This document shows positions 2,596 through 64,000 of a stretch of 64,000 nt of DNA, one piece after another. Within the stretch, counting starts at the first letter, position 1, and every line of letters starts with the position of its first letter. Under the pieces are notes generated by a model that was given only the letters and a program-made list of their open reading frames with translations, made no database searches and was not told where the DNA came from. Origin of the DNA: Thermomicrobiales bacterium (GTDB lineage: Bacteria > Chloroflexota > Chloroflexia > Thermomicrobiales > UBA6265); NCBI GenBank assembly GCA_023957115.1, contig JAMLHN010000012.1, positions 30,829-94,828 on the forward strand. The letters are read 5' to 3'. The position numbers and the translations under genes were made by a program.

Positions 2596-3148
2596 CGCGC
2601 CGGCGGCGCGATGCACAGGGGCAACGTGGGAATGCGCCGATCTCCAGAGCTGCGCACGCTCGATCTCATTCGGGGGGTGGGTGCGTGCCGGAGTGCCAGC
2701 GGAGCGTCTCCGAGCCGTTGTGGAGAGGCAGCCCAAGAGTAGTTCGGCAGAGGGGGATCCTGGTAAAGCTGCTGCTTGCATACGTGCGAGAGACACAGTG
2801 CTTCGTCGCTCCGGCTTATCCGGCCAGGTCTGACCGAGCATCCAGCCACGCAAGCCAAACACGAGAACTCCACGTCCCCTATGCATGTTCTTGTTCCCGA
2901 GAACCGGACAGTGTTTCCGGTCGTCATCGTGTCCCAACCCCATTTCCCAAAGGTCCGATCGTTCTCCCTTGTCGTTCGGACTGTTCGACGTGCGCGGATC
3001 ACGACGACCCGCTACGCCGTCATGCGTGCTCCTGATCTGGACAGGACCGAGCCAGGTCAGATGTTGGCGTCCATCCCAAATCTGCACGTGATCGTCCCAC
3101 CGAGGGGATTCCTGCAGCGAGAGTCGTGTTCGTCTTTGGGCGACATGT

Positions 3149-3197
3149 ATGAAATTTGTGTTGCGAATGCACCAATTATGAATGAAATGTTGCAAAT
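3149..3197. promoter_or_regulatory. Direct repeat ATGAAAT...GTTGCnAAT (2 copies) in an AT-rich patch upstream of the RpiR gene; candidate operator
   Basis: atgaaatttgtgttgcgaat at 3149-3168 and atgaaatgttgcaaat at 3182-3197. This is the only strongly AT-rich patch in the 2596-3267 gap. Confidence 0.3.
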
Positions 3198-3218
3198 ACT
3201 CAGGCTCCCTGCTAGAGT
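3190..3218 (+). promoter_or_regulatory. Sigma-70-like promoter candidate for the RpiR gene
   Basis: TTGCAA (3190-3195), 17-nt spacer, TAGAGT (3213-3218). Followed by GGGAG and a TTG start at 3268. Confidence 0.35.
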
Positions 3219-3267
3219 CCGGTTCAGCGAAGCATCAATCACGTACGAATGGATTCGGGAGCTCTCG

Positions 3268-4116
3268 TTGGACGGTTCACACCCACTCGTAGGGCATCAT
3301 CACTACGATCGACTGAGCCCCAAACAGCAGAAGTTGGCGCGTTTTGTTGCCGAGAATCCGTCATTTGCCGCATTTGCCACCGCGGCCAATCTGGCCGAGC
3401 GCGCCGGCACGAGCACCGCAACGGTGGTCCGGTTCGCGCAGGCGTTGGGCTTCGATGGCTACGAGGAATTCCAGCAAAACGTTCGTCACAACTATTTGCG
3501 GACACTCCGGCCGCTCGAGGCGCTGGAGAGCAAGCCGCATGTCGGTGAGAACCTCTTCGAAGTGCAGCTTTACCAGGACCTCGAGAATCTGCGGCTGGCG
3601 TTGCACTCGCTGCATGTCGACCTGTTGACCGAGATTGCGGAGCGCATCGACGCTGCACGACAGATCGTGATCGTCTCCGCAGGTAGCTACTCGGCGGTCG
3701 CGTTGGTGCTTGGGCATCTGCTGCGATTCATGGGCTACCCCGCCCTTGTCGAGGATCGGGGTGGTCCACATCTCACAGCCGCGATCTCTCCATTGGATGA
3801 CCGTGACCTCGTCATTGGCATCAGCTTCTGGAAAGGCGCCCGCGAGATCGTCGGGGTGCTGGAGTGGGCGTCGGGCAAGGGGATTCCGACCATTGCGCTC
3901 GCGGATACCGTCTACGCCCCACTTGCCCGCGCCGCCACCACCGCCGTCGTGCTGCCGACTGAGAGCCCATCGTTCTATCAGTCGATGGTCGCACCGCTTT
4001 CGATCGCTTACGGAATCGTCGCGTTTCTGGCCAATCGTGCGGATGCAGACCGCAAGCAGATCATGAGGGAGGCGGAACAAAGCTACGACCTATTGGATAT
4101 CTCGGTAAATCGTTAG
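3268..4116 (+). CDS. RpiR-family transcriptional regulator (HTH + SIS domain)
   Basis: HTH region LSPKQQKLARFVAENPSFAAFATAANLAERAGTSTATVVRFAQALGFDGYEEF, then a SIS-like IVIVSAGSYSAVA...DLVIGISF. The ORF-track start at 2776 is judged too early. TTG 3268 lies 6 nt after GGGAG and downstream of the promoter-like pair. ATG 3178 and 3187 are alternative starts. Confidence 0.85.
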   Translation: MDGSHPLVGHHHYDRLSPKQQKLARFVAENPSFAAFATAANLAERAGTSTATVVRFAQALGFDGYEEFQQNVRHNYLRTLRPLEALESKPHVGENLFEVQLYQDLENLRLALHSLHVDLLTEIAERIDAARQIVIVSAGSYSAVALVLGHLLRFMGYPALVEDRGGPHLTAAISPLDDRDLVIGISFWKGAREIVGVLEWASGKGIPTIALADTVYAPLARAATTAVVLPTESPSFYQSMVAPLSIAYGIVAFLANRADADRKQIMREAEQSYDLLDISVNR

Positions 4117-4172
4117 TTAGGTAAATATAAGCGCCGGGTCGATTGGCGTATCAACCAGTCAAGGGGAGATTC

Positions 4173-5315
4173 ATGTCAGGTGCGCGTGTTCAGCGAATTC
4201 AAGACCGTATTCGAGACGAGGGGCTCGATGCGCTCGTTTTGTACAAACCGGTCAATACGTACTACGCCAGTGGATTCACCAGCCTCGACACCGCTCGTCC
4301 GAACTCGTACACGCGGCCGATCGTCGTTGTCCTGACCCCGGAGCGGGGCACACTCGTCGTTCCACTGCTCGATGACGAGCCGGCTCGGGAAATGTCCTGG
4401 ATCGGGGACATCCGATCGTATCTCAAGCCACCTCCGTTCGAGAGTGGGCAGGAGTTGATCGCGGAATTCCTCAGCGAGCAGGGCGCCCGCCGCATCGGTG
4501 TCGAGCAGGATTACATCTCGCTCAGGGTGATGGACGATCTGCGTCGCCGCCTTCCAAACATCGAATTCGCTCCCGCCGCGCACATCATCGAATCACTGAG
4601 GCTCATCAAGGATGCCCAGGAGATCGAGTACCTGCGCGAGGCTTCGCGGCTGACCGACGTCGCCATGAAGACCAGCATCGACGCCATGATCGCCGGCCGG
4701 TCCGAGATCGAGGTCGAGGCCGAAGGTATCCGGGCCATTCGACTCTCCAACGGGAACGGCGGACTGAACCATCAGACCGCCATGATCGACGCCATGGCGA
4801 TCATTCTCGGCGGCGCCCGCGGTTCGATGCCGCACGAGTTTAGTTCCTATCGCCCGTTCGAAGACGGCGATCTCACCTGGCACTGCTGGCTGATTTCCTC
4901 GTGGGGGTACTGGTCGGAGAACGTTCGCTCCCTGGTGCTGGGCGAAACCAACGCAATCCATCAGCGGATGCTCGATGCCGCTCGGGTCTCGTTCGAGCTC
5001 GGCAAAGAGCAGGTTCGTCCTGGAAACGAAGTCCGGAACGTTTTTGCAGCCGTCCAGGGACACATTCAGAAGCAAGCCCCTGACGGCACCATGCTCATCT
5101 CGCGCAGCGGACATGGCTCAGGTCTCGAGTATCACGAGCCGCCGTTCGTCGAAGCGACAGACACCACGGTGCTCGAGCCGGGAATGGTGCTGACCGTCGA
5201 GCCAGGCGTATTCCTCCCTGGCGTCGGTGGCGCCACCTACTCTGACACGCTCGTCGTGACAGAAAACGGTCACGAGACCCTCACGCAATACCCGATCGAA
5301 GGCAGTCGCAACTAG
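4173..5315 (+). CDS. M24-family creatinase / Xaa-Pro peptidase-like hydrolase
   Basis: ATG preceded by AAGGGGAG (4161-4168). N-terminal creatinase/prolidase domain plus pita-bread motifs SGHGSGLEYHEPP and VLTVEPGVF. See the finding on metal-ligand substitutions. Confidence 0.85.
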   Translation: MSGARVQRIQDRIRDEGLDALVLYKPVNTYYASGFTSLDTARPNSYTRPIVVVLTPERGTLVVPLLDDEPAREMSWIGDIRSYLKPPPFESGQELIAEFLSEQGARRIGVEQDYISLRVMDDLRRRLPNIEFAPAAHIIESLRLIKDAQEIEYLREASRLTDVAMKTSIDAMIAGRSEIEVEAEGIRAIRLSNGNGGLNHQTAMIDAMAIILGGARGSMPHEFSSYRPFEDGDLTWHCWLISSWGYWSENVRSLVLGETNAIHQRMLDAARVSFELGKEQVRPGNEVRNVFAAVQGHIQKQAPDGTMLISRSGHGSGLEYHEPPFVEATDTTVLEPGMVLTVEPGVFLPGVGGATYSDTLVVTENGHETLTQYPIEGSRN

Positions 5316-5338
5316 CGGGTCGACTGGAGGAGCGTCAC

Positions 5339-7417
5339 ATGACAGTCCGGGTCGGGATCGACATCGGCGGCACATTTACCGACGTGGTGATGATCGACAG
5401 CGATGGCAACATCGTGGTCGACAAAGTGCCGTCGACGCCGCCGAATTTTGCAAACGGCGTGATGAACGGGCTGGGTAAGCTGCCAGTCCCGATCGAAGCA
5501 CTGTCGTACTTCTCCCACGGAACCACCGCGGCCACGAACGCCATCATCGAGAAGAAGGGCGCCAGGACTGGTCTGATCACGACCAGGGGCTTTCGGGATG
5601 TGCTGGAAATCCGGCGCGCGGATCGTGGCAAGTTGTACGACTACTGGTGGCGACCGCCTCAGCCATTGGTTCCACGGCCGTTCCGGCGCGAAGTAACCGA
5701 GCGTATTGCCTTTGACGGTTCTGTGCTCGATCCGCTATCTGAGTCCGAGGTGCTCGAAGCGGTCGATTTCCTGCGCGGACACGATGTCCAGGCGGTCGCC
5801 GTTTGCTTCCTAAACTCGTTCACGAACGCAGCACACGAGCAGCGAGTGAAAGAGCTGATCGTCGAGCGCTGGCCAGACGTTTTCGTTTGCACCTCGTTCG
5901 AGATTCTGCCGGAGCTGCTCGAATTCGAGCGGACCAGCACGACCGTCGCAAACGCCTATGTGGGGCCGATCATCAGCACGTATCTCGAGGATCTGGAGCG
6001 TCAGCTCCAGGCACAGGGTTTCGCCGAGGATGTCTACATTATGGGCTCCTCGGGCGGCATGATGACGGCGACGCAGGCAGAGCAGCTTCCGGTTTCCACC
6101 GCCGTGTCCGGGCTGGCCGCCGGTGTGATGGCTGGGGCGGAAATCGCGGCTCAGACCGGGCGCGAGAATGTCATCACCTTGGATGTGGGGGGAACCAGCA
6201 GCGATATTGCCCTCATCCACCGGTCCACACCACGCCTGACCAACGAATGGATGGTCGAATTTGGCGTTCCCATCCGGTTGCCAGCGGTCGATATTCACAC
6301 ACTCGGCGCCGGAGGGGGCTCGATCGCATGGATCGATGCCGGAGGCGCCCTCCAGGTCGGACCGCAAAGCGCCGGTGCGGTGCCCGGCCCTGTCTGCTAC
6401 GGCAAGGGGGGTGCCGAGCCGACCACCACAGACGCCCAGCTCTTGCTGGGGCGCCTGAATATGGAGCTTTGGCGCGAGCGATACGGGTGGGATCTCGATC
6501 TCGCGGCTGCTGAAGAAGCCCTCCGCGTGAAGATTGGCGACCCGCTCGGCTTGACCGCGGTCGAAGCGGCCGATGCGATTCTCAGGGTGACCGTCAACAA
6601 CCTGGTGCAGGGGATCCGGCTTGTCTCCATCGAACGTGGGTACGATCCGAGGGCATTCACCTTGTGTCCGTTTGGCGGCGCTGGCGCGATGTACGGCGTC
6701 GATGTCGCCGAGGCGCTTTCGATTCCCGAAGTCGTCGTGCCGCTTCACCCTGGAGTGACGTCAGCCCTGGGACTGCTCCAGGTCGACCTCAAACAGGACC
6801 TGATGCGGTCCGCATTGATGGTGCAGGGGGAGATCGACCTGGACCTCCTGACCGGGCTCTACGCAGAGCTGGAAGCCGAGGCCAACGATCTCCTGGAAGG
6901 AGCGGACGTTCCGGCAGAGCGTCGCATTCTTCGACGCCAGGCGGATGTTCGCTACTTCGGCCAGAGTAAGTACATGACCGTTTCGGTACCGGACGGTCCA
7001 GTCGACGACGCGCTCGTCGCGACGCTTATCGAGAACTTCAGCAGCGAGCATCAGCGCGAATACGGCTACACGATGCCTCCGCACATTGCCGAGATCGAGA
7101 TTGCCAACGTACGCCTCGCCGCCATCGGGCAGCTCGACCGGCCGTCGATCGTCAGCTCGGCAGATGCCACGGCGCACGGTTCGGCCACGTCGTGCCGTCC
7201 CGTCTACTTCACCGCAACAGGATCTGTCGAGACGCCCATTCTTGGCAGAGCCCAGATCGCGCAGGGACAGCCCGTGCTGGGACCGGTTGTGATCGAGCAA
7301 TCCGATGCCACGACCGTAGTGTCGCCTGGCTGGCAGGCAGTGGCCGATCACTTGGGGAATCTGATCGTCAGTCACGTTCATGTCGGATCGGACACGGGAG
7401 GCAGCCATGGCAATTGA
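5339..7417 (+). CDS. hyuA: Hydantoinase/oxoprolinase A subunit (HyuA family)
   Basis: 692 aa; N-terminal VGIDIGGTFTDVV ATPase motif; DVGGTSSDIAL. RBS GGAGGAG upstream. Confidence 0.92.
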   Translation: MTVRVGIDIGGTFTDVVMIDSDGNIVVDKVPSTPPNFANGVMNGLGKLPVPIEALSYFSHGTTAATNAIIEKKGARTGLITTRGFRDVLEIRRADRGKLYDYWWRPPQPLVPRPFRREVTERIAFDGSVLDPLSESEVLEAVDFLRGHDVQAVAVCFLNSFTNAAHEQRVKELIVERWPDVFVCTSFEILPELLEFERTSTTVANAYVGPIISTYLEDLERQLQAQGFAEDVYIMGSSGGMMTATQAEQLPVSTAVSGLAAGVMAGAEIAAQTGRENVITLDVGGTSSDIALIHRSTPRLTNEWMVEFGVPIRLPAVDIHTLGAGGGSIAWIDAGGALQVGPQSAGAVPGPVCYGKGGAEPTTTDAQLLLGRLNMELWRERYGWDLDLAAAEEALRVKIGDPLGLTAVEAADAILRVTVNNLVQGIRLVSIERGYDPRAFTLCPFGGAGAMYGVDVAEALSIPEVVVPLHPGVTSALGLLQVDLKQDLMRSALMVQGEIDLDLLTGLYAELEAEANDLLEGADVPAERRILRRQADVRYFGQSKYMTVSVPDGPVDDALVATLIENFSSEHQREYGYTMPPHIAEIEIANVRLAAIGQLDRPSIVSSADATAHGSATSCRPVYFTATGSVETPILGRAQIAQGQPVLGPVVIEQSDATTVVSPGWQAVADHLGNLIVSHVHVGSDTGGSHGN

Positions 7418-9179
7418 TCCAACGACGTTCGCGATTCTGCGCAGCTCATTCGTAAATATCGCCAATGAGATGGGGTTGACACTCGGGAAGGTTGCCTACT
7501 CTCCGGTTATTACCGAGGGCCGCGATTTCGCTGGAGCGGTCTATGACTCAAATGGCCATCTGGTTGCGTGTGGTGAGCACGATCTGACCGGACTCCTGGG
7601 CACCATGGAGCCAACCATCCAGTTGATTTTCGATTGGCTGGGGAAAGAGAACCTTCATGAGGGAGATGTTGTCTTTGTCAACTGCCCGCATGAAGCCGGA
7701 AGCCATCTGAACGATGTGCGAGCCGTCAAGCCCGTCTATTGGGAAGGTGAGCTGGTCGCCTTCGTCGCCGATGTCGGGCACTGGACTGACATTGGTGGAC
7801 CGGTTCCTGGTTCGATCAATCCGCTCGCGCGCGACAGCTATGGTGAGGGGCTGCGGATCACGCCCATCAAGGTGGTCGATCGGGGAGTCATCCGGGACGA
7901 CGTCATTCGGATGATTCTGGGCAACCTGCGGATCCCGTATGAAACCAATGGGGACATCTTCGCTCAGATCAAGGCGCTGGAATCGGGCGAGGCCCGGTTG
8001 CATGAAGTGCTTCGAACCTATGGAGCGGACACCTTGAGCGAAGCATTTGCTCAAATGAAGGTCCACGCCGCCGGCATCTTCCGCAACTACCTCGCTCAGA
8101 TACCGGACGCCGAAGTCGAGTTCACCGACTATATCGACCTCGATCCGCTCGATCTCGAGGCTGGGCCAGTACGCATCCATCTGAAGCTGATCAAGTCCGG
8201 TGATCGGTTGATCTTCGACTTCACTGGATCTGCGCCGGCGCCCAAGGGCGGGGTAGGAGCGTCTCGACCGCTCACCTGTTCAGGCGTCTATGTTCCGGTT
8301 CTCAATCTATTCCCGGACGTTCCGTTCAACCACGGATTCATCGAGTGTTGCGAGGTGCGTACGAAGCCGGGGACCGCGGTGCATGTCGAGTTTCCATCGC
8401 CGGTATCCGGGGCAGCCTCGGGCGGATTCGAGAAGGTGATCGCCTGCACGCTGGGCGTGCTGGGACAGCTGGTGCCAGAGAAGCAGGTCGGATCGACCTA
8501 CAACCTGATCAACGTCACGCTTGGCGGAATCGATCCTCGATTCAACAAGCCCTACGTGATGTACATGTGGAACGAAGGTGGGTTTGGGGGCGGTCCTCAC
8601 ATGGATGGCGGCGATGCCCCCACCATGGCGCTCTTTGCGACCGGGTCGCGCAACCAACCGGTGGAAGTGCATGAGCGCTTCTATCCCGTCGTCTACACCG
8701 AGCTCGTGATTGGCGAAGACACCTCCGGGGACGGTCGTTGGCGCGGCTGTCCCGGTATTCGGCACAGCTACCGGGTCGAGCATGGGCAGGGTGAGGTTGG
8801 CGTCTTCGGAGACCGTGCCAAACATGCGCCGTGGGGCGTCAAGGGCGGTCGTGCGGCTGCTCCCCAGGTCGTCTACGTGAATCGCGGCAGGCCGGACGAG
8901 CGTGTGCTCGGAATGTTCAGCTCCGGGGTCATTGTCAACGAAGGCGACATCGTCGAAGTGTGGTCCGCTGGCGGCGGCGGTTATGGCGAGCCGATGGACA
9001 GAGAGCCCGAGCGGGTGCTCGCGGATGTCCAGAGCGGAATTCTTTCAGTTGCACGCGCGAAGGAGGTGTACGGGGTCATCGTGCGGTGTGTCGACGAGAG
9101 ACTCGAGCAGTACGACGTCGACGAGAAGGAGACGTTGGAGACGCGCGAGTCCCTCAAGCAATCCGTAGCGACTGTCTAG
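7407..9179 (+). CDS. hyuB: Hydantoinase B/oxoprolinase subunit (HyuB family)
   Basis: Starts MAIDPTTFAILRSSF after GGAGG and overlaps the hyuA stop by 11 nt. HyuB-type C-terminus GGGGYGEPMDREPERVLADVQSG. Confidence 0.92.
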   Translation: MAIDPTTFAILRSSFVNIANEMGLTLGKVAYSPVITEGRDFAGAVYDSNGHLVACGEHDLTGLLGTMEPTIQLIFDWLGKENLHEGDVVFVNCPHEAGSHLNDVRAVKPVYWEGELVAFVADVGHWTDIGGPVPGSINPLARDSYGEGLRITPIKVVDRGVIRDDVIRMILGNLRIPYETNGDIFAQIKALESGEARLHEVLRTYGADTLSEAFAQMKVHAAGIFRNYLAQIPDAEVEFTDYIDLDPLDLEAGPVRIHLKLIKSGDRLIFDFTGSAPAPKGGVGASRPLTCSGVYVPVLNLFPDVPFNHGFIECCEVRTKPGTAVHVEFPSPVSGAASGGFEKVIACTLGVLGQLVPEKQVGSTYNLINVTLGGIDPRFNKPYVMYMWNEGGFGGGPHMDGGDAPTMALFATGSRNQPVEVHERFYPVVYTELVIGEDTSGDGRWRGCPGIRHSYRVEHGQGEVGVFGDRAKHAPWGVKGGRAAAPQVVYVNRGRPDERVLGMFSSGVIVNEGDIVEVWSAGGGGYGEPMDREPERVLADVQSGILSVARAKEVYGVIVRCVDERLEQYDVDEKETLETRESLKQSVATV

Positions 9180-9253
9180 AGCGGCAAATCAGGATTCTTG
9201 CACTGTCCAGCCAAAGCAAACGAGTCGTTCAACCCTCGAAAAGGAGAGCACCT

Positions 9254-10366
9254 ATGTCCACGATCAATGGTCCGAAACAGTTCGATCGGCGTCGCCTCCT
9301 CAAAGGGGCGGGTGCGGCCGGTCTGGCCCTTGGAGCGCCCATGACGCGCTCGATGCGCACCTCCGCGCAGAGCGGTGAGCTGGTCTTTCTCACCTATGCC
9401 GTTTACTCGGATCCGGTGTTGGTTGATGGATTCACCGACCAGACGAGTATCTCGATCGTTCCCGAGAATTATGGCGAGCTCGACGAGATGGTGACCAAGC
9501 TCCGGGCTCGGGGCGGCAGCGGTTACGACGTCGTCTCGGTGGCGAGCAACCTCACGAAGCAGCTCTTCGATGAGGGGCTGATTCTGCCAATCGACACCAG
9601 CCGTCTTTCGAATTGGTCCAGTCTCAATCCAGCGTTCGGTACGGCCGCCTATGTCCAAACTGGGACCGAGGGACAAGTCAGCGGTGTTCCGACAGTCTGG
9701 GGACCGGAAGGGCTCATCTACCGCACCGACCTGGTCGACGACCCGGTCGATTCGTGGGCGATTCTCTGGAACGAGAACTACAAGGGCCAGATTTCCGCGA
9801 TCGATTACGGCTACGAAATGATTCTGATCGCGGCGCTCTATCTGGGCTATCAGGATGAGCTTCGCGCGGATCCGATCGTCTTCTCGGACGAGCAGTTCGA
9901 CAATATCAAGAATGCGCTGATTGACCAAAAGCAGCTTGTCAATCGCTACTGGTCCGACGTCTCGGAAGCAGAAGCCGGGTTGGCGAGCGGCGAAACGGTA
10001 GCGACCATTGGACGAATCCTCTTCCAGACCGACCTGGAGAACGAGGGCATTCCGGTCCAGCTTGTCGCCCCCAAGGAAGGGACGCAGGGCTGGTGCACGA
10101 GCACCTGCATCGCTGCCGGGAGCCAGAATATCGATGCCGCGTACGAGTTCCTGAACTATGTCATTAGCCCCGACTATGGGCTGCCTCTGGCAGAGAGCAT
10201 GGGCTATCCATCCTCATCGAGCGTCGTTCTCTCAATGCTTCCGGAGGATGTGAGCGCTCGTATGACATTCAACGACCCGAATATCGTCGAGTCGATGATC
10301 TGGTGGCAGGCGGCTGGTGACGAACAGCGGTGGAATGACCTTTGGAACGAGGTCAAGGCGTCTTAA
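9254..10366 (+). CDS. PotD/PotF-like (polyamine-type) ABC substrate-binding protein with twin-arginine-like signal
   Basis: AAGGAGAG RBS at 9241-9248. N-terminus MSTINGPKQFDRRRLLKGAGAAGLALGAP. Followed by two permeases and a PotA-like ATPase. The ORF-track start at 8831 lies inside hyuB and is rejected. Confidence 0.85.
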   Translation: MSTINGPKQFDRRRLLKGAGAAGLALGAPMTRSMRTSAQSGELVFLTYAVYSDPVLVDGFTDQTSISIVPENYGELDEMVTKLRARGGSGYDVVSVASNLTKQLFDEGLILPIDTSRLSNWSSLNPAFGTAAYVQTGTEGQVSGVPTVWGPEGLIYRTDLVDDPVDSWAILWNENYKGQISAIDYGYEMILIAALYLGYQDELRADPIVFSDEQFDNIKNALIDQKQLVNRYWSDVSEAEAGLASGETVATIGRILFQTDLENEGIPVQLVAPKEGTQGWCTSTCIAAGSQNIDAAYEFLNYVISPDYGLPLAESMGYPSSSSVVLSMLPEDVSARMTFNDPNIVESMIWWQAAGDEQRWNDLWNEVKAS

Positions 10367-53506: not shown

Positions 53507-53578
53507 TTGTCTGAACGCCGATTCTGCCGCCCAGCGAGAATCCAATTGCCACACGGCAGCGATCTGGAAAGTACGTCG

Positions 53579-54379
53579 ATGGTGAAGCTCTATTCCTGGA
53601 ATGTAAACGGACTGCGTGCGGTCATTCGCAAGGACGCGTTTCAGCCGTTCATTGCTGAATGCAACCCGGACATTCTCTGTTTGCAGGAAACGAAAGCAAA
53701 ACAGGGACAAGCCGAAGTCGACCTTCCCGACTATCGGGAATACTGGTTCTCGGCAGTCAAACCCGGCTACAGCGGGACGGCCATCTTTACTCGGACCGAA
53801 CCAATTCAGGTCGTCAATGGGTTGCCAGCAGATATCATCGAGCAATACGCCCTTACCGGAGACGGCTACGGCAATCCGAATGATGAGGGCCGCGTCATGG
53901 CGGCCGAGTTCGATCGGTTCTGGCTGGCCACCGTTTACACCCCCAATGCAAAGGACGATTTGAGCCGCATCCCCCTGCGGCAGTCATGGGATCCGGCCTT
54001 CCTGGCCTACATGCTGCGACTCGAACAGCAGAAACCGGTGGTCTTTTGTGGCGATCTCAACGTCGCGCATACGGAGATCGATCTTGCCCGGCCGAAACCA
54101 AACATGGGTAAGAAGGGGTTCACGATCGAGGAACGTACCGGTTTTCAGGCGTTCGTCGATGCTGGCTTGATCGATACATTCCGCACACTCCATCCTGATC
54201 GAACCGATGCCTACACCTGGTGGAGCCAGATGGCGAACGCACGTGCACGGAATGTCGGCTGGCGTATCGACTACTTCCTGACCTCGACATCGTTGCGGCC
54301 GAATATCGTCTCGGCAGACATTCACGCGAACATCATGGGATCGGATCACTGCCCGATTTCGCTCGATCTTCAGTTTTAG
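53579..54379 (+). CDS. xth: Exodeoxyribonuclease III (ExoIII/APE1 family)
   Basis: MVKLYSWNVNGLRA, LCLQETK, GDLNVAH, WRIDY and GSDHCP motifs. The ORF-track TTG start at 53507 is judged too early. Confidence 0.92.
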   Translation: MVKLYSWNVNGLRAVIRKDAFQPFIAECNPDILCLQETKAKQGQAEVDLPDYREYWFSAVKPGYSGTAIFTRTEPIQVVNGLPADIIEQYALTGDGYGNPNDEGRVMAAEFDRFWLATVYTPNAKDDLSRIPLRQSWDPAFLAYMLRLEQQKPVVFCGDLNVAHTEIDLARPKPNMGKKGFTIEERTGFQAFVDAGLIDTFRTLHPDRTDAYTWWSQMANARARNVGWRIDYFLTSTSLRPNIVSADIHANIMGSDHCPISLDLQF

Positions 54380-57181: not shown

Positions 57182-57205
57182 GGCCGGAAGCGATCGCTTC
57201 CGGCC
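57182..57205. terminator. Perfect 24-nt palindrome between the convergent fixC and hyuB genes
   Basis: GGCCGGAAGCGATCGCTTCCGGCC is its own reverse complement. It lies 33 nt past the hyuB stop at 57238. Confidence 0.5.
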
Positions 57206-57237: not shown

Positions 57238-58986
57238 CTACGCGGCAGCCATGCGCGTCGCGCGAACGCGGGCGGTGTCTTCGTAGTCGATATTGCCCTG
57301 ATCGTCGAAGACCACGCCGTAGAGCTCCTGCGCCGCTTCGATCGAAACGAGCTCCTCCAGGACGTCTTCGAGCACTTTATCCGGATCGCGTTCGAGCGGA
57401 TTGCCGAAACCACCGCCGCCACCACTGCGAATCGAGAGGAGATCTCCCTTGGCAATCGGCTGGTCGGGGGTCTTGATGATCTCGAATCCCTGACCATAGA
57501 TCGACGAATCGAGTACGCCGTACGTGCGGCCGCCAGGCAGACCGCCCGCGACGCCCGCATGGGGGGCAATGCATCGCTCCAACACCGAGATCATGCGACC
57601 ATCGGCCAGCAGCCGGTAGTCACGCTGGATCCCGAGGCCGCCGCGGAACTTGCCCGCTCCACCGCTATCCTGGCGCAGCTCGTACCGCTCGATGATCTCG
57701 GGATCCTTCGCCTCTTCGAGCTCGACCGGCAAATTGCGGCTACATGCTTCGAGGATATGCACCATCGCGCTTTCGCCGTCAGCGGATGCGCTCGCCCCCA
57801 TTCCGATGCCATCGATGTTGGCTTCCACCCACATCTCACTGGTGACGGGATCGAATCCGTATCGGAACACGGCGCAAAGATCGCCACCCGATTGCGCCGG
57901 AAAGCGATCCGGGAAGTCGGGCGCCATGGCCGACATGGTGGCTTCGATAGCGGTCATTCCGGGCCAGCCGTACAAATTGGTCGGCGCGGCATCATGGGGA
58001 TTGAAGAGTGATCCCTTGGGAGCCACGATCTTGATCGGCCGGAACGAGCCTTCACAGGCAGCCGAGTCGGGCGCCGACAGAATCTTCCCAAGCATGCGCG
58101 AGACCGAGATCGCGGTGATCAACGGCACATTCATCGGTCCCCGCTGTTGCTCGGCCGATTCCGAGTAATCGAAGGTGACTTCTGCGGCCACCGGATCGAT
58201 GGTGACCGCCACGCCGACTTTCAGCGGGACGCCCCGGTCGATTCCGTTGTCATCGCAATAGTCGATGCCGGTCCAGGTGCCCGCGGGCATCTGCCGAATT
58301 GCGTCACGTGCCATCCGCTCGGCGTGATCGTAGATCTCGTTGATACAACCGTAGACGGTATCGAACCCGTACTTGTCGAGGAGGCGAATCACGCTCTGTT
58401 CACCCGATCGGAAACAGGCAATCTGGGAATGGATGTCACCCCAGATGATCTCGGGCGCGCGGGAATTCGACTTGATGACGGACGCCAGCGTTTCATCGAG
58501 CTTGCCGGCCCGATAGAGCTTAATCGGCGGGAGACGTAATCCCTCCTGAAAGGCATCGGTCGAGTCGGTCGGATAGGGATCCTTCGCGCCGACGTCCACC
58601 AGATGCGCCTTGCTGGCGGCGAAGCCGAAGAGCCGGTCGCCATAGTAGATCGGCATCCAGAGCATCATGTCGGCCGGGTGCGATCCGGTGAACGCGGGCA
58701 TCGACGTGATGTAGATGTCGCCCGGTTCGAGATCGTCCATCCCGCGTTCCTCGAATGACTTCTTGATGCCTGGGCTGAGGGTGCCCATGAATGCAGTCAG
58801 CCCGGGTGACTCGGCCAGCGTATTGGCTTCGGCGTCGAGCAAGCCACAGGCAAAGTCACGGTCCTCATAGATGATTGGCGAAAACGACGTCCGCTGAATC
58901 GTGTCGCGCATCTCGCGCGCCGCTGCCAGAAGTGTGTTGTGCACGACCGCCGTCGTGATTGGATCAACCGTTTGAGTTTGATTCAT
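57238..58986 (-). CDS. hyuB: Hydantoinase B/oxoprolinase subunit, paralog 1
   Basis: 582 aa, MNQTQTVDPITTAVVHNTLL..., GGGGGFGNPLERDPDKVLEDV. Own RBS GGAG in the 57-nt spacer. Confidence 0.92.
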   Translation of the reverse strand: MNQTQTVDPITTAVVHNTLLAAAREMRDTIQRTSFSPIIYEDRDFACGLLDAEANTLAESPGLTAFMGTLSPGIKKSFEERGMDDLEPGDIYITSMPAFTGSHPADMMLWMPIYYGDRLFGFAASKAHLVDVGAKDPYPTDSTDAFQEGLRLPPIKLYRAGKLDETLASVIKSNSRAPEIIWGDIHSQIACFRSGEQSVIRLLDKYGFDTVYGCINEIYDHAERMARDAIRQMPAGTWTGIDYCDDNGIDRGVPLKVGVAVTIDPVAAEVTFDYSESAEQQRGPMNVPLITAISVSRMLGKILSAPDSAACEGSFRPIKIVAPKGSLFNPHDAAPTNLYGWPGMTAIEATMSAMAPDFPDRFPAQSGGDLCAVFRYGFDPVTSEMWVEANIDGIGMGASASADGESAMVHILEACSRNLPVELEEAKDPEIIERYELRQDSGGAGKFRGGLGIQRDYRLLADGRMISVLERCIAPHAGVAGGLPGGRTYGVLDSSIYGQGFEIIKTPDQPIAKGDLLSIRSGGGGGFGNPLERDPDKVLEDVLEELVSIEAAQELYGVVFDDQGNIDYEDTARVRATRMAAA

Positions 58987-59043
58987 AGCTCCAACCTTTC
59001 AGACTCGACCAGGGAGTCCGGGGATTCCATCGTACCGAATCGT

Positions 59044-60789
59044 TCAGACATGCATGCGCGATGCTCTGAGTGCATCGGTCCCGGCGCCATCGAGATTGCC
59101 GTCATCTGCAAAGACCACACCATAGAGCTCGTGAGCCGCCTCGACCGAAACGAGCCCTTCGAGCACATCCTCCAGAACTCGTTCCGGGTCCCGTTCCAGC
59201 GGGTTGCCGTAGCCGCCACCACCCCCGGTCACGATGGTCATGAGATCCCCCTTGGCAATCGGCTGATCCGGTGTCTTGATAAACTCGACTCCCTCGCCAT
59301 AGATGGACGAGTCGAGAATGCCGATCGTCCGTCCGCCGGGAAGACCACCGGCAACTCCGGCGTGCGGAGAGGTGCATCGTTCCAGGGTGGAGATCATACG
59401 GCCATCGGCCAGCAGCCGGTAAGCCCGCCGCACGCCCAGACCACCTCGGAACTTGCCGGCGCCGCCACTGTCGGTCACCAGCTCGTAACATTCGATGATC
59501 TCCGGATCCTTGGTTTCTTCCAGTTCGACCGGCAGGTTGCGGCTGCACGCTTCCTCGATGTGAACGACGGCGCTCTCACCATCGGCGAACGCGCTGGCTC
59601 CTTGCCCGATACCTTCGATATTGGCTTCGACCCACATCTCGCCGGTGACCTGGTCGAATCCATACCGGAAACAACCACAGAGGTCTCCTCCCGATTGGGC
59701 AGGAAAGCGGTCCGGAAAGTCCGCCGCCAGCGCCTTGAGAATTGTCTCCACAGCCGTCATCGAGGGCCAGCCGTAGAGATTGGTTGGTGCTGAGTCATGG
59801 GCATTGAAGATCGACCCCAATGGGGCGATCACCTTGATTGGGCGGAACGACCCCTCGCAGGCGACCGAGTCGGGCGCGGAGAGGATCTTGCCCATCATGC
59901 GGGCGCAGGAAATCGCGGTGATGATCGGCGCGTTCATCGGTCCGCGCTGTTGCTCGGCCGATTCGGAAAAATCGAACGTGACCTCTCCGGCTTCGGGATC
60001 GATGGTGATGGCGACGCCGACTTTCACGGGAACGCCACGGTCGATTCCATTGTCGTCGCAGTAGTCGACGGCGGACCACGTCCCCGCCGGCATCTGGCGA
60101 ATCGCGTCGCGCGCCATCCGCTCGGCGTGATCGTAGATCTCCTGCACGCAGTCGTTCACCGTCTCGAATCCGTATTTATCGAGCAAGCGTTGAACGCTCT
60201 GCTCGCCGGTCCGGAAACAGGCAATCTGGGAATGGATGTCACCCCAGATGGTCTCCGGCGCGCGGGAATTCGACTTGATGACCGCCGCCAGCGTCTCGTC
60301 CAGCACCCCGCCTCGATAGAGCTTGACCGGCGGGATGCGCAGGCCCTCCTGAAAGGCATCGGTCGAGTCGGTCGGATAGGGGTCCTTGGCGCCGACGTCG
60401 ACCAGATGCGCCTTGCTGGCGGCAAACCCGAAGAGCCGCCCCTCATGGAAGATCGGCATCCAAAGCATCATGTCAGCCGGATGCGAACCAGTGAAGGCTG
60501 GAATCGAGGTGCAGTAGATATCGCCCGGCTCGATCTCGTCCTTGCCGCGCTCCTCGATAGAGCGCTTGATGCCAGGACTCAACGTGCCCATGAAGGCAGT
60601 CAATCCGGGCGCTTCCGCCAGCGTGTTGGCATCCGCGTCCAACAACCCGCAGGCGAAGTCACGGTCCTCATAGATGATTGGCGAGAACGACGTTCGCTGG
60701 ATTGTCTCGCGCATCTCTTTTGCGGCGGTCAGCAGCGTGTTATGCACGACCGCCGTTGTGATTGGATCGACCGTACGCGTCTCCGGCAT
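59044..60789 (-). CDS. hyuB: Hydantoinase B/oxoprolinase subunit, paralog 2
   Basis: 581 aa, colinear with paralog 1 and identical at most positions by eye (MPETRTVDPITTAVVHNTLL...). Confidence 0.92.
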   Translation of the reverse strand: MPETRTVDPITTAVVHNTLLTAAKEMRETIQRTSFSPIIYEDRDFACGLLDADANTLAEAPGLTAFMGTLSPGIKRSIEERGKDEIEPGDIYCTSIPAFTGSHPADMMLWMPIFHEGRLFGFAASKAHLVDVGAKDPYPTDSTDAFQEGLRIPPVKLYRGGVLDETLAAVIKSNSRAPETIWGDIHSQIACFRTGEQSVQRLLDKYGFETVNDCVQEIYDHAERMARDAIRQMPAGTWSAVDYCDDNGIDRGVPVKVGVAITIDPEAGEVTFDFSESAEQQRGPMNAPIITAISCARMMGKILSAPDSVACEGSFRPIKVIAPLGSIFNAHDSAPTNLYGWPSMTAVETILKALAADFPDRFPAQSGGDLCGCFRYGFDQVTGEMWVEANIEGIGQGASAFADGESAVVHIEEACSRNLPVELEETKDPEIIECYELVTDSGGAGKFRGGLGVRRAYRLLADGRMISTLERCTSPHAGVAGGLPGGRTIGILDSSIYGEGVEFIKTPDQPIAKGDLMTIVTGGGGGYGNPLERDPERVLEDVLEGLVSVEAAHELYGVVFADDGNLDGAGTDALRASRMHV

Positions 60790-60791
60790 GC

Positions 60792-62834
60792 TTATTCGTT
60801 CCCGACTGCAATCCGCAGCGCTCCGAACGTGTCGACGGTTGCGACATCGCCGGGCATCAGCACCGTGACATGGCTCGGTTCCTGAATGAGCGCCGGTCCC
60901 GAGATCGTCGCGCCCGCGAGCAGCTTGGAACGGTCGTAAATCCCGGCATCGCGCCAGGCGCGATTGACGAAGACCTGCTTCGTGCTGACGAGTGCATCGT
61001 CGGCCGACTCGGCCCCGTCCTCGATTTCCACCAGCGGCAGCCGGTGCATCGATCCAAAGACGCGCAGGCGGAAGGTCACCGTCTCCTGTTTGGACGGCAT
61101 CTTGTGACCGTATCGCACCTCGTGGACCTCATCGAAAAGCTCTGGCAGGATCTCGACCAGCTTTTCGTCGATCGCGATCTCACCCAGCGGTACCTCGACC
61201 TCGTGCCCCTGTCCGGTGTACCGGCAGTCGATCGACCGGTGGAAGGTGACCTGATCGCGCGCCACGCCGGCTTCATCGGTCAGCCCGTACGCTTCGGATT
61301 CCATCTCAGCAAAGAGTCGCTTGACATAGTCGATGTCGAGCTGGGGCATCTGCCGGAGGTAGCTGCGTGCGAAGCTGCCAACGATATCCGCGCTCAACAT
61401 ACCCCATGCCGAGAAGGTCGAAGGATGGCGCGGAATGATGACGTTGGGAATATCGAGCGTGCGTGCAACCTCACTGGCAAACAGACCGCCTCCACCGCCG
61501 AAGGCCAGCAACGCGAAATCGCGTGGGTCATGTCCTTGCCCGACCAGGGTTTGCCGCGTAACGTTCGCCATATTGTTGCGCGCCACGGTCAAAATGCCCT
61601 CGGCGGTCTCGTCGGTCGAGAGACCGAGCTGCTCCGCAATGACCGCGATGCCGGTTTTCGCAAGCTCCGGTTTGAGTTTCATCTCACCGCCGGCAAAAAG
61701 CGATGGGTCGATCAAGCCGGTCACCACGGCGGCATCCGTTACGGTCGGCGCATCGCCGCCACGGTCGTAGCACATGGGACCGGGATCCGCGCCGGCGCTG
61801 GACGGACCGACATGCAAGCGCCCGCCGGTATCCACGCGGGCAATGCTGCCTCCGCCGGCACCGACGCTCCGAACGTCGATGCTGGAAACCTTGGCGGTAT
61901 ACCCCAGGAGATCGTGCTCGGTGGCCAGTAGGGTCTTGCCGTCCACCACGATCGAAACATCGTAGCTCGTTCCGCCGACGTCGCCCGTCACCAGGTTCGG
62001 CGTGCCCAGCTTCTCGGCAAGATAGGCGGCGCCGATCGCGCCACCGGCCGGCCCCGATTCCATCATCTGAATCGGAGCGCGGCCGATTGCCTCGACGGTC
62101 GAAACGCCGCCGGTCGAATTTGCGATCAGCGGCGAGTTGGCCAGTCCGGCGTCCTCTTGCAACGTCTTGTCTAGCCGCTCGAGATAGCTAACCACGGGTT
62201 TCTTGACGTATGCGTCGATGACGGTCGAGCTGGTGCGCTCGTACTCTCGAATCTCGCGGGCCACCTCGTGGCTCATGGAAACATAGATGCCCGGATCCAT
62301 TTCCCGGATGATGCTGCGGACCGCAAGCTCGTGACTCGGATCGGCGTAGGCATGCAACAGGCAAACGGCGATCGATTCGACTCCCGCCTCGAGCAGCTTC
62401 TCGGTCACCACGCGGACTTCGGCTTCGTCGACCGGTTCCAGCACCGTGCCATCGAACATCATGCGAGCCGAGATCTCGAGCCGCCGCCGCCGGGGCACCA
62501 GCGGTTTCGGTTTTTCCCAGAAGATGTTGTAGATATGCTCGTCGGGCCGGTCGATACGGCGGATCTCGAGAATATCCCGAAATCCCTTGGTGGTGATCAG
62601 ACCTGTGACGGCTCCCCGCTGGGTCACCAGCGCGTTTGTAGCCACGGTCGACCCATGGATGAACTGGCCGATCGCTTCGGCTGGCACACCGGTCTTGGCG
62701 TAGGCCGCCATGACACCCTGCACCACGTCTGACGGCGTGGTGGCAGCCTTGTCGGCTTTGATCTCACCGGTCTGGTCATCGACCCAGACGATATCGGTGA
62801 ACGTTCCTCCGATGTCGGTTCCAATACGGATCAT
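60792..62834 (-). CDS. hyuA: Hydantoinase/oxoprolinase A subunit
   Basis: MIRIGTDIGGTFTDIV start preferred over 62909; DVGGTSYDVSIV; about 680 aa. Confidence 0.92.
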   Translation of the reverse strand: MIRIGTDIGGTFTDIVWVDDQTGEIKADKAATTPSDVVQGVMAAYAKTGVPAEAIGQFIHGSTVATNALVTQRGAVTGLITTKGFRDILEIRRIDRPDEHIYNIFWEKPKPLVPRRRRLEISARMMFDGTVLEPVDEAEVRVVTEKLLEAGVESIAVCLLHAYADPSHELAVRSIIREMDPGIYVSMSHEVAREIREYERTSSTVIDAYVKKPVVSYLERLDKTLQEDAGLANSPLIANSTGGVSTVEAIGRAPIQMMESGPAGGAIGAAYLAEKLGTPNLVTGDVGGTSYDVSIVVDGKTLLATEHDLLGYTAKVSSIDVRSVGAGGGSIARVDTGGRLHVGPSSAGADPGPMCYDRGGDAPTVTDAAVVTGLIDPSLFAGGEMKLKPELAKTGIAVIAEQLGLSTDETAEGILTVARNNMANVTRQTLVGQGHDPRDFALLAFGGGGGLFASEVARTLDIPNVIIPRHPSTFSAWGMLSADIVGSFARSYLRQMPQLDIDYVKRLFAEMESEAYGLTDEAGVARDQVTFHRSIDCRYTGQGHEVEVPLGEIAIDEKLVEILPELFDEVHEVRYGHKMPSKQETVTFRLRVFGSMHRLPLVEIEDGAESADDALVSTKQVFVNRAWRDAGIYDRSKLLAGATISGPALIQEPSHVTVLMPGDVATVDTFGALRIAVGNE

Positions 62835-62854
62835 AAGCGTTTGTGTACCTCTCT

Positions 62855-63853
62855 CTAGACTGCCATCGGCTGGTAGTCCATATCGATTCCAAAGTGCCTG
62901 GGACCCCAAACCGCCAGGGCTTCCGGAGTCCGCATGATGTCTGGAACTTGCACGGCCATGACTTTGACGCGCTGGCCGTATCTGAGCTCCTCGGTCGTGA
63001 TCGGCTCGGCGGTGTCGCTATCGAGCACACAGATCAGATCCGGTACGACCGCGAGTACGTGGTCGCCTTGTTTGGCGATGATATTTTCGTTTTGGAAGCT
63101 GATAAAGAGCTCTTCGTCGGAGCTGGCATCCGCGTGCGGCGCGATCCGCACCGAGCCCATGGCCCACCCCTGTTCGGTCCGGCGATTTACCTCGGTGACC
63201 TTGCCTTCGAAGATGACCTTCGCAGGGGTGTACTCCGTAGAAGCGAACGTCTCGCTTATCGCATCGAACGGGTCGCGGTGCGCCTCTCGCGCCTCGCGAA
63301 TAGCTCGGCCGACCCGCAGCCCCAGACCGATGGTTCCGGACACGGAAACGCGCTTGGCCGTTGCCCCATCCATGGGGAACTCTGCGATATAGCCGACACC
63401 GCCCATGCGAATCGTCAAACCGCGCGCGAACCATTCGAGCGCAAAATTATCGTGCGCCTCGATGACGCAGGTGTCCAGGTGGTCGTTCGTGAGCACCAGC
63501 GGCGAACCGCTCACACCGTAGATGTGAAACGTCTCGTGAAAGAGCTCGGGGAAGGCTCGTCCCATCCCGTCGCCGTCCACCACCGGGATTCCCAAGCGTA
63601 ACCCGACCACGAGCGGCATCATCGAATTCATGCCGCCCGCCTCGATGGGCATGGTGGCGAATCCCTTCTTGCCAAGGTGCCCTTCGAGGCGCTGGAACGA
63701 AGAAACCAGCTCACTTCCGTTCGGTAGCTTCTCCACGATGCAGGTCGGCGCACCCATCATCGCGGTCGGAATAACCAGCGCATCGTCCGGTACTTCCGAG
63801 AGATCGAGCAGCTCGATCTCTCGGCCGGTTTCATCGAGCGCCCGCTCGACCAT
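62855..63853 (-). CDS. DUF917-family protein (hydantoinase-associated), main reading frame
   Basis: VVDGDGMGRAFPE and PIEAGGMNS motifs typical of DUF917. The family's N-terminal GTGGGG motif is encoded upstream in another frame (see next feature). Confidence 0.85.
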   Translation of the reverse strand: MVERALDETGREIELLDLSEVPDDALVIPTAMMGAPTCIVEKLPNGSELVSSFQRLEGHLGKKGFATMPIEAGGMNSMMPLVVGLRLGIPVVDGDGMGRAFPELFHETFHIYGVSGSPLVLTNDHLDTCVIEAHDNFALEWFARGLTIRMGGVGYIAEFPMDGATAKRVSVSGTIGLGLRVGRAIREAREAHRDPFDAISETFASTEYTPAKVIFEGKVTEVNRRTEQGWAMGSVRIAPHADASSDEELFISFQNENIIAKQGDHVLAVVPDLICVLDSDTAEPITTEELRYGQRVKVMAVQVPDIMRTPEALAVWGPRHFGIDMDYQPMAV

Positions 63854-63954
63854 CCAGCAAATCCCACGTAGGGGTTGCCGCCGCCGCCCGTTCCGAGAAA
63901 TGCCGCTCCGCGTGCAGGGTCCTTCAGATCTTCGCGACTCACCTTCAAACCCAA
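63757..63954 (-). other. Out-of-frame N-terminal segment of the DUF917 gene
   Basis: TTG at 63954 lies 7 nt after GAAAGGA. It encodes MGLKVSREDLKDPARGAAFLGTGGGGNPYVG, the DUF917 N-terminal motif, then runs out of frame relative to 62855-63853 near 63861-63866. Confidence 0.6.
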
Positions 63955-64000
63955 TGCTATGTCCTTTCAGACAGACGCTCAGCGGTCGTGGTTCCCGAAG

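Follow-up and report, generated by a model that had tools for sequence, protein, structure and literature searches.

One HyuA and two diverged, maintained HyuB paralogues at the end of a conserved Thermomicrobiales operon

ATP-dependent HyuAB enzymes split highly stable ring amides such as hydantoins, oxoproline and lactams. They are of interest in biocatalysis and for recycling nylon monomers, and the determinants of their substrate specificity are poorly understood. Here, we describe a locus on a 64,000-nucleotide (nt) stretch of DNA from a Thermomicrobiales bacterium (contig JAMLHN010000012.1; this whole stretch is called the window below), in which a single hyuA gene is followed by two consecutive hyuB genes, hyuB1 and hyuB2 (57238-63954, including a neighboring DUF917 gene). 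Among the described relatives, CapAB of Pseudomonas jessenii (6YRA) is a two-subunit enzyme of the HyuA/HyuB type, which forms an A-B-B-A heterotetramer with the B dimer at its core (PMC8453981). In CapB, the metal ligands, the interface of the two CapB subunits (residues 129-174) and the helices contacting CapA all belong to the N-terminal Greek-key domain, and most pocket residues come from later domains (PMC8453981). This system has a single B gene in the order capB-capA. N-methylhydantoinase (9H03/7HK5 series) opens the hydantoin ring in an ATP-dependent manner and is one A-B fusion protein of 1288 amino acids (aa), with a fixed 1:1 ratio and no second B. Acetophenone carboxylase (Apc), a member of the same superfamily, has a B-type central dimer and paralogous subunits with divided roles (PMC5214803). 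Its duplicated subunit is of the A type (alpha/alpha'), which is the sole documented subunit paralogy within a complex (PMC5214803). The enzyme is a carboxylase that needs gamma and epsilon subunits and has a B subunit of about 680 aa, and the authors of its structure were unable to derive specificity signatures (PMC5214803). Hydantoinase clusters, finally, were described as two genes (hydA-hydB) without gamma, in which alpha is more than 100 aa shorter than Acx-alpha and beta is about 150 aa shorter than Acx-beta (about 720 aa) (PMC5214803). When we searched the literature on hyuA/hyuB paralogues, we found no description of a duplicated hyuB.

The genes of the locus in the window are arranged as follows:

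57238-58986, minus strand: hyuB2 (paralogue 2), 582 aa, hydrolytic (metal-site) subunit; PF02538 over the full length, E 1e-144
58987-59043, minus strand: B1-B2 spacer, 57 nt, with the sequence GAAAGGTTGGAG, which resembles a ribosome-binding site (RBS), immediately before the ATG of B2
59044-60789, minus strand: hyuB1 (paralogue 1), 581 aa, hydrolytic (metal-site) subunit; PF02538 over the full length, E 9e-152
60792-62834, minus strand: hyuA, 680 aa, ATP-binding (ASKHA-type) activating subunit; Hydant_A_N, Hydantoinase_A and Hydant_A_C
62855-63954, minus strand: DUF917b (Pfam S-Me-THD_N/C), 1100 nt, with a +2 nt frameshift at about 63854-63864

Open reading frames and Pfam domains agree with the four minus-strand genes that had been described from the letters alone (the sequence-only reading). 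The hyuA gene lies within an open reading frame at 60792-62909 and probably starts at the ATG at 62834 (MIRIGTDIGG), with AGAGAGG ahead of it, and its product is 84-89% identical to the A proteins of relatives. It is the only full-length A in the operon. The order A-B, subunits of 680 and 581 aa and the absence of a gamma gene fit the hydA-hydB description, but the second hydB departs from the two-gene rule. B2 has an RBS of its own, GAAAGG..GGAG, in the 57-nt spacer. The ATG of B1 follows the hyuA stop codon at a distance of 2 nt, so that B1 is translationally coupled to hyuA, and only a weak GGGA precedes it. In relatives, B1 and B2 overlap (about 0 nt) or lie up to 63 nt apart, and our spacer alignment among them revealed no conserved element apart from the RBS.

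Both B proteins are full-length members of the Hydantoinase_B family (PF02538), with scores of 507 bits (B1) and 483 bits (B2) against a curated cut-off of 26.8 and with profile positions 1-519 of 519 covered. Both paralogues have the metal ligands D44, H103, D106 and H128, which do not vary within either B clade or among the outgroups, and both retain the motif GGGGG[YF]GNPLERDP. In sequence searches of the PDB, the best match of B1 was N-methylhydantoinase (7hk5_A, E 1.7e-79, 32% identity), and CapB was also hit (6yra_B, E 1e-69, 30% identity over the full length). An AlphaFold2 model of B1 (pTM 0.81) pointed in the same direction, with TMq values of 0.83 for 9h03_A, 0.82 for 6yra_B and 0.80-0.81 for 5m45_A and 5l9w_A; this model and the GGGGGxGNP motif indicate the HyuB fold, with its barrel domain and glycine-rich polyproline-II-like segments. 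The metal tetrad (D-H-D-H), Tyr136 (Y138 in the window) and the glycine-rich motif are common to CapB and B1/B2. However, the pocket of CapB is hydrophobic (L38, V386, P408, L415), whereas the corresponding residues in the window are polar (E41, N390, H410, S416), and because of these replacements the substrate is probably not caprolactam-like. In contrast to CapAB, the gene order is A-B1-B2; in contrast to N-methylhydantoinase, the subunits are separate proteins; and in contrast to Apc, the duplicated subunit is of the B type (581 aa), and a gamma-type gene was found neither in the operon of the window nor in those of relatives. No protein reached an NCBIfam equivalog threshold for caprolactamase, acetophenone carboxylase or thiohydantoin desulfurase. 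For caprolactamase (NF050156/NF050157), A scored 516, B1 264 and B2 254 bits against a cut-off of 1000; for ApcA/ApcC/ApcD, scores were 111-304 bits against cut-offs of 1250-1500; and for the thiohydantoin desulfurases, the DUF917 protein scored 65-78 bits against cut-offs of 440-450. Judged by these profiles, the DUF917 protein is not a thiohydantoin desulfurase of those equivalogs.

When we aligned the two B proteins, 475 of 579 residues were identical (82%, E = 0) without a single gap, and the DNA was further apart (77.3% identity; dN 0.12, dS 1.15), just as the colinear and mostly identical copies had appeared by eye. In a phylogeny of the 75 nearest homologues, B1 and B2 fall into clades of their own, and the split is clean for codons 241-540. 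Seven independent assemblies carry tandem B1-B2 pairs (the window, L002, L080, L081, L082, L098, L099), and the nearest outgroups (L084/P0029, L086, L005, L006) have a single B. Synonymous sites are saturated (dS 1.2-2.2), and dN/dS amounts to 0.07-0.12 between paralogues and 0.03-0.07 between orthologues. Taken together, sequence comparison indicates that the tandem duplication predates the radiation of this clade and that both copies are under purifying selection. Because of the orthologous clades in seven assemblies, the saturated dS and the low dN/dS, the second copy reflects neither an assembly artefact nor decay, and the earlier suggestion of a maintained duplication is borne out (overall dN/dS 0.03-0.12). 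The chance that a strain variant was collapsed or duplicated in tandem during assembly is thus practically negligible. The source is a metagenome-assembled genome (MAG) and the neighboring DUF917 gene has an indel, which would suit such an artefact, but the copies are merely 77% identical in DNA and each of them groups with orthologues from six other independent assemblies of different projects with the same order A-B1-B2.

The two copies do not differ evenly along their length. For this comparison, a position was called clade-diagnostic when at least 85% of the members of each clade shared a residue specific to that clade. Here, we found 26 such positions, all of them in residues 240-527 and none in residues 1-239, and the region of the B-B interface (133-176) lacks any clade-diagnostic difference. 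The nonsynonymous divergence (pN) follows the same pattern:

Residues 1-240: pN 0.10 between B1 and B2; 0.08-0.10 between orthologues
Residues 241-end: pN 0.16-0.17 between B1 and B2; 0.09-0.11 between orthologues

By sequence, the N-terminal domain, which in CapB comprises the A docking surface and the B-B core, is undifferentiated between B1 and B2, and the fixed differences are confined to the two C-terminal domains. The nucleotide tree of the N-terminal third leaves B1 and B2 intermingled, and synonymous divergence (pS) is lower within than across genomes in the window and L002 only (0.50-0.54 versus 0.67), with synonymous sites near saturation; these patterns are suggestive of gene conversion in this part of the gene.

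To map the substrate pocket, the CapB sequence was rebuilt from the printed alignment, and all 19 residues named in PMC8453981 were recovered at their correct numbers. The mapping agreed between pairwise HMMER and an L-INS-i alignment of 127 sequences. Of the 14 pocket positions that could be aligned, nine are invariant throughout the family (E41, L63, Y138, G340, L370, N390, G393, S416 and, with rare exceptions, H410). Among the other five, four are clade-diagnostic:

Position 343: S in B1, G in B2
Position 373: C in B1, V in B2
Position 412: E in B1, L in B2
Position 468: T in B1, V in B2

The residues at these positions are conserved to 93-100% in their clades, and the charge change E412/L412 is 100% conserved in each. 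The enrichment of diagnostic positions in the pocket (4 of 14) is significant in a hypergeometric test (p = 0.002; p = 0.008 when restricted to residues 240-527). Thus, the B1/B2 substitutions are not restricted to sites outside the pocket, an outcome that would have spoken against the proposal of the sequence-only reading. The direction of change depends on the outgroup: with distant outgroups B1 appears derived, and with the nearest one (P0029: S, V, E, T) B2 appears derived at 343, 412 and 468. Two independent tandem pairs, P0046/P0061 (L083) and P0059/P0064 (on an A-B-B contig), likewise differ at variable pocket positions.

Since the docking domain and the catalytic residues are kept and pocket-homologous residues differ, we consider that a single HyuA may serve two alternative hydrolytic subunits, B1 and B2, with different substrate preferences, and we assign this reading a probability of roughly 0.5. 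Most likely, the operon takes up a stable cyclic amide (hydantoin or diketopiperazine type) and degrades or modifies it. Judging from the homologous caprolactamase and N-methylhydantoinase, the ring amide would be activated by HyuA at the expense of ATP and then handed over to HyuB, whose metal site D44/H103/D106/H128 would hydrolyse the activated intermediate. In the most probable mechanism, the single A would pair with either B, giving A2(B1)2, A2(B2)2 and possibly mixed A-B1-B2-A complexes. The outcome would be two hydrolytic sites of different substrate preference behind one activating subunit and a broader range for a cyclic amide pathway. The fixed differences (none N-terminal, four of them among the 14 pocket sites) fit the earlier proposal that two B subunits widen or switch specificity, but this proposal is something that we infer from the sequences, as we do the formation of complexes, the part played by the pocket residues and the class of substrate.

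Several observations weigh against alternative substrate preferences of B1 and B2. The differing pocket positions fall into the 70th-94th percentile of family entropy, so that general variability may explain part of the pocket enrichment, and the pocket assignment was transferred from an enzyme of 30% identity (CapB). In the AlphaFold2 model, which was made for B1, the metal and pocket loops (37-43, 99-105, 129-151, 406-428) have pLDDT values below 50, and for this reason the model was left out of the pocket comparison. The frameshifted DUF917b gene implies that the pathway may be impaired in this genome, or that the assembly may be wrong there. Moreover, B1 is dispensable in some lineages, which is consistent with partial redundancy. 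Two loci (L003, L004) have only a B2-type gene after a spacer of about 60 nt, and in a concatenated tree they group next to L080, a genome with two B genes (bootstrap 98%). At L091:1212-2621, a degenerate B1 remnant of 177 codons (K126T, G133D, HPAD->HSAD) lies directly upstream of an intact B2-type gene, which looks like a snapshot of B1 loss as far as the sequence tells. In L001 and L085, there is one B each with a mosaic of B1 and B2 states, and the branching of L001 and L081 in the species tree has a bootstrap value of 49%. We considered the single B of L001 as a crossover hybrid (B1 at the 5' side, B2 at the 3' side) and dropped this idea; judged against the nearest outgroup P0029, most B2-like states in its C-terminal part are ancestral, and those that are derived form a mosaic.

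These losses speak for another explanation, according to which B1 and B2 are equivalent, an extra B is mildly useful for dosage, assembly or stability, and the differences are near-neutral drift at loosely constrained sites. Besides the lost (L003, L004) or decaying (L091) B1 and the single mosaic B that is enough in L001 and L085, it can draw on the diagnostic pocket positions being among the most variable of the family and on the observation that co-production with CapA in E. coli yielded CapB in excess over CapA and partly in insoluble form (PMC8453981), so that B supply could matter. However, drift among equivalent copies sits poorly with the retention of both in at least seven assemblies past synonymous saturation at a dN/dS of about 0.1, with 26 positions that are fixed differently, conserved per clade and all located outside the N-terminal domain, with a charge change (E412 versus L412) that is fully conserved on each side, and with the recurrence of differences at variable pocket positions in independent tandem duplications. 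We regard redundancy as a possible but doubtful explanation of the pair.

The same single-B genomes bear on the scenario of a differentiated heteromer, in which B1 and B2 would form a heterodimeric core of an A-B1-B2-A complex with divided roles, comparable to alpha/alpha' of acetophenone carboxylase. B-type subunits do form the dimeric core in CapAB, Acx and Apc (PMC8453981, PMC5214803), hyuB1 and hyuB2 are adjacent and co-transcribed, and the interface at 133-176 without diagnostic differences makes heterodimers sterically plausible. An obligate B1:B2 heteromer is nevertheless unlikely because some relatives lost B1, and L003 and L004 do with a single B beside an A that is 88-89% identical. 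In addition, both paralogues keep the four metal ligands and all invariant pocket residues, neither of them looks degenerate or regulatory, and the interface differentiation that would enforce such a complex is absent. Less probable still is a split in which the full-length HyuA would partner one B and a short HyuA-like protein the other, which would give two separate A:B enzymes. The operon of relatives does encode two A-type and two B-type proteins, but the short HyuA (516 aa) lacks Hydant_A_C, is just 27% identical to A and always adjoins DUF917a, even in the single-B genomes L084, L086, L005 and L097. For these reasons, it looks like a partner of DUF917 and not of a B subunit. The undifferentiated A-docking domain of B1 and B2 argues in the same direction. 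Set against these explanations, the alternative-subunit arrangement, in which one HyuA serves B1 or B2, is the reading that we prefer.

When we surveyed 79 genome loci, one A plus two B-family genes within 10 kb occurred in 28 of them. In 26 alphaproteobacterial loci (for instance L034:7900-16511, L010, L014, L018, L026 and L032), one HyuA is accompanied by two very divergent HyuB-family proteins in the order HyuA, HyuB, Asp/Glu/hydantoin racemase, M24 creatinase-like peptidase, Zn-dependent dehydrogenase (Zn-ADH), orphan HyuB (526 aa) and ABC ATPase. These clusters resemble the window in having one HyuA and two HyuB-family genes. They differ from it in that the second B is distal (2-5 kb) and anciently diverged, each B being about 31-35% identical to the B of the window, so that there is no recent tandem copy, and most of them are without an adjacent cyclodipeptide-oxidase (CDO) or DUF917 module. 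Tandem B-B pairs arose independently at least twice more (P0046/P0061, P0059/P0064). On the contig of the latter pair (JGI 3300059473), the independent A-B-B genes are followed by a BNR/sortilin-like gene, a creatininase family gene (PF02633) and a luciferase-like monooxygenase gene; the single B of L084 is followed by the same BNR/sortilin gene. The exact synteny of the window is found in a small Thermomicrobiales clade, where it carries no functional assignment, whereas the presence of one A with two B as such is frequent. The hyuA-hyuB1-hyuB2 arrangement is a real, maintained variant of a known enzyme type and not a new kind of system.

The operon does not begin at 63954, as can be seen from the second of the following features of the two flanks:

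57182-57205, no strand: perfect 24-nt palindrome GGCCGGAAGCGATCGCTTCCGGCC, between the convergent hyuB2 and fixC-like genes, read from the sequence
63979-64000, minus strand: 3' end of CDOA (nitroreductase family), last six codons plus stop, FGNHDR*

FGNHDR* matches the gene ends ...TSWE.FGNHDR(G/D)* in L002, L003, L004, L081 and L082, and because it corresponds to the C-terminus of the nitroreductase-family gene of relatives, the operon continues past the edge of the window. In relatives (L080, L081, L082, L084, L099), the order is an Opp/Dpp-type ABC transporter, the short HyuA, DUF917a, a pair resembling a cyclodipeptide oxidase (CDOB, PF19585, and CDOA, PF00881), DUF917b, HyuA and the HyuB(s), and downstream there are convergent fixC/ETF/enoyl-CoA hydratase/thiolase genes as in the window. 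By this comparison of gene order, the four genes of the locus form the 3' part of an operon that is conserved in Thermomicrobiales. The palindrome on the other flank is likely to form a bidirectional terminator hairpin, judged from its sequence and position; a T-run is absent after it, and it went unreported in a scan for consensus terminators. Consensus scans for promoters and terminators remained at background level, and a search of a plasmid collection with the 6.7-kb region gave no match. B2 is 100% identical to a protein (P0020) annotated as 'MAG: Thermomicrobiales bacterium', and hence the window is part of a Chloroflexota MAG from a soil-type member of the Thermomicrobiales. Exact-sequence look-ups with B1 and with P0020 yielded no record, and the upstream context was therefore taken from relatives.

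The DUF917 gene beside hyuAB, which had also been pointed out before, is present with both Pfam domains (PF06032 and PF20906, 143 and 219 bits), but its frame is broken and its length of 1100 nt is not a multiple of 3. Compared with four intact orthologues (L002, L003, L080, L081), there are 2 extra bases at about 63854-63864, where the orthologues read YVGRLMVERAL and the window reads YVGFA+gg+MVERAL. The N-terminal frame (TTG at 63954, motif GTGGGGNPYVG) stops after 65 codons, and the remainder can restart only at the ATG at 63853. This could be a real pseudogene or an error of the MAG assembly. Broken or shortened genes were also observed elsewhere in the family. At L082:6173-8214, hyuA is split into two reading frames (479 and 202 aa) on a 1.3-Mb contig with B1 and B2 intact, reflecting a frameshift or a sequencing error, and shortened matches were seen for the short HyuA in L003 and for DUF917b in L004. 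The outgroups L084:2255-6492 and L086:1238-5408 have one HyuB and three DUF917 paralogues, two of them in tandem, and thus different genes of the operon were duplicated in different lineages.

Elsewhere in the window, the third hyuAB pair reported at 5339-9179 proved to be real (5339-7417 and 7380-9179), and its B is 28% identical to B1. It belongs to a plus-strand group at 2776-10366 with an RpiR-type regulator (HTH_6 and SIS), an M24 creatinase/prolidase-like peptidase, HyuA (692 aa), HyuB and a solute-binding protein, so that an M24 peptidase accompanies HyuAB both here and in the alphaproteobacterial clusters. At 53507-54379 (plus strand), an Exo_endo_phos (exonuclease III-like) gene lies between two ETF subunit genes. 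This insertion is kept in L080, L081, L082 and L099, whereas the ETF genes of L084 are adjacent.

The wider operon places these HyuAB proteins in a context that has been noted before. According to Andreas and Giessen, 88% of CDO clusters lack a gene for a cyclodipeptide synthase (CDPS), DUF917, hydantoin racemases and ABC dipeptide transporters are overrepresented in such clusters, and Chloroflexota are one of the main phyla (10.1101/2023.09.25.559410). In L080, L081, L082, L084 and L099, we found adjacent PF00881 and PF19585 genes without a CDPS gene, flanked by DUF917 and by an ABC dipeptide/oligopeptide transporter as in their clusters, and the window thus holds the tail of a CDO cluster type already noted in the literature. 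In the passages of their text considered here, the genes listed for 'hydantoin or allantoin modification' are DUF917, hydantoin racemases and AroM homologues but not HyuA/HyuB, and a duplicated HyuB is not mentioned. Going by this gene neighborhood, hydantoin-like rings or cyclic dipeptides may be the substrates. A more specific proposal, which we put forward as unlikely and speculative, is that HyuA-HyuB1-HyuB2 might be an ATP-dependent hydrolase of 2,5-diketopiperazines, or of their CDO-oxidised dehydro forms, imported by the Opp/Dpp-type transporter, with B1 and B2 dividing the work by side-chain class or by the two non-equivalent ring amides.

With 26 fixed differences, four of them pocket-homologous, the B pair behind one A represents a compact natural experiment on specificity and subunit exchange in the HyuAB family, and the operon context ties HyuAB to DUF917 and to CDO clusters without a CDPS gene. 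If the diketopiperazine proposal were true, it would give a catabolic role to the majority of CDO clusters, those without a CDPS gene, and it would mean that specificity in the HyuAB family can be changed in a modular way, by exchanging the hydrolytic subunit behind a common activator.

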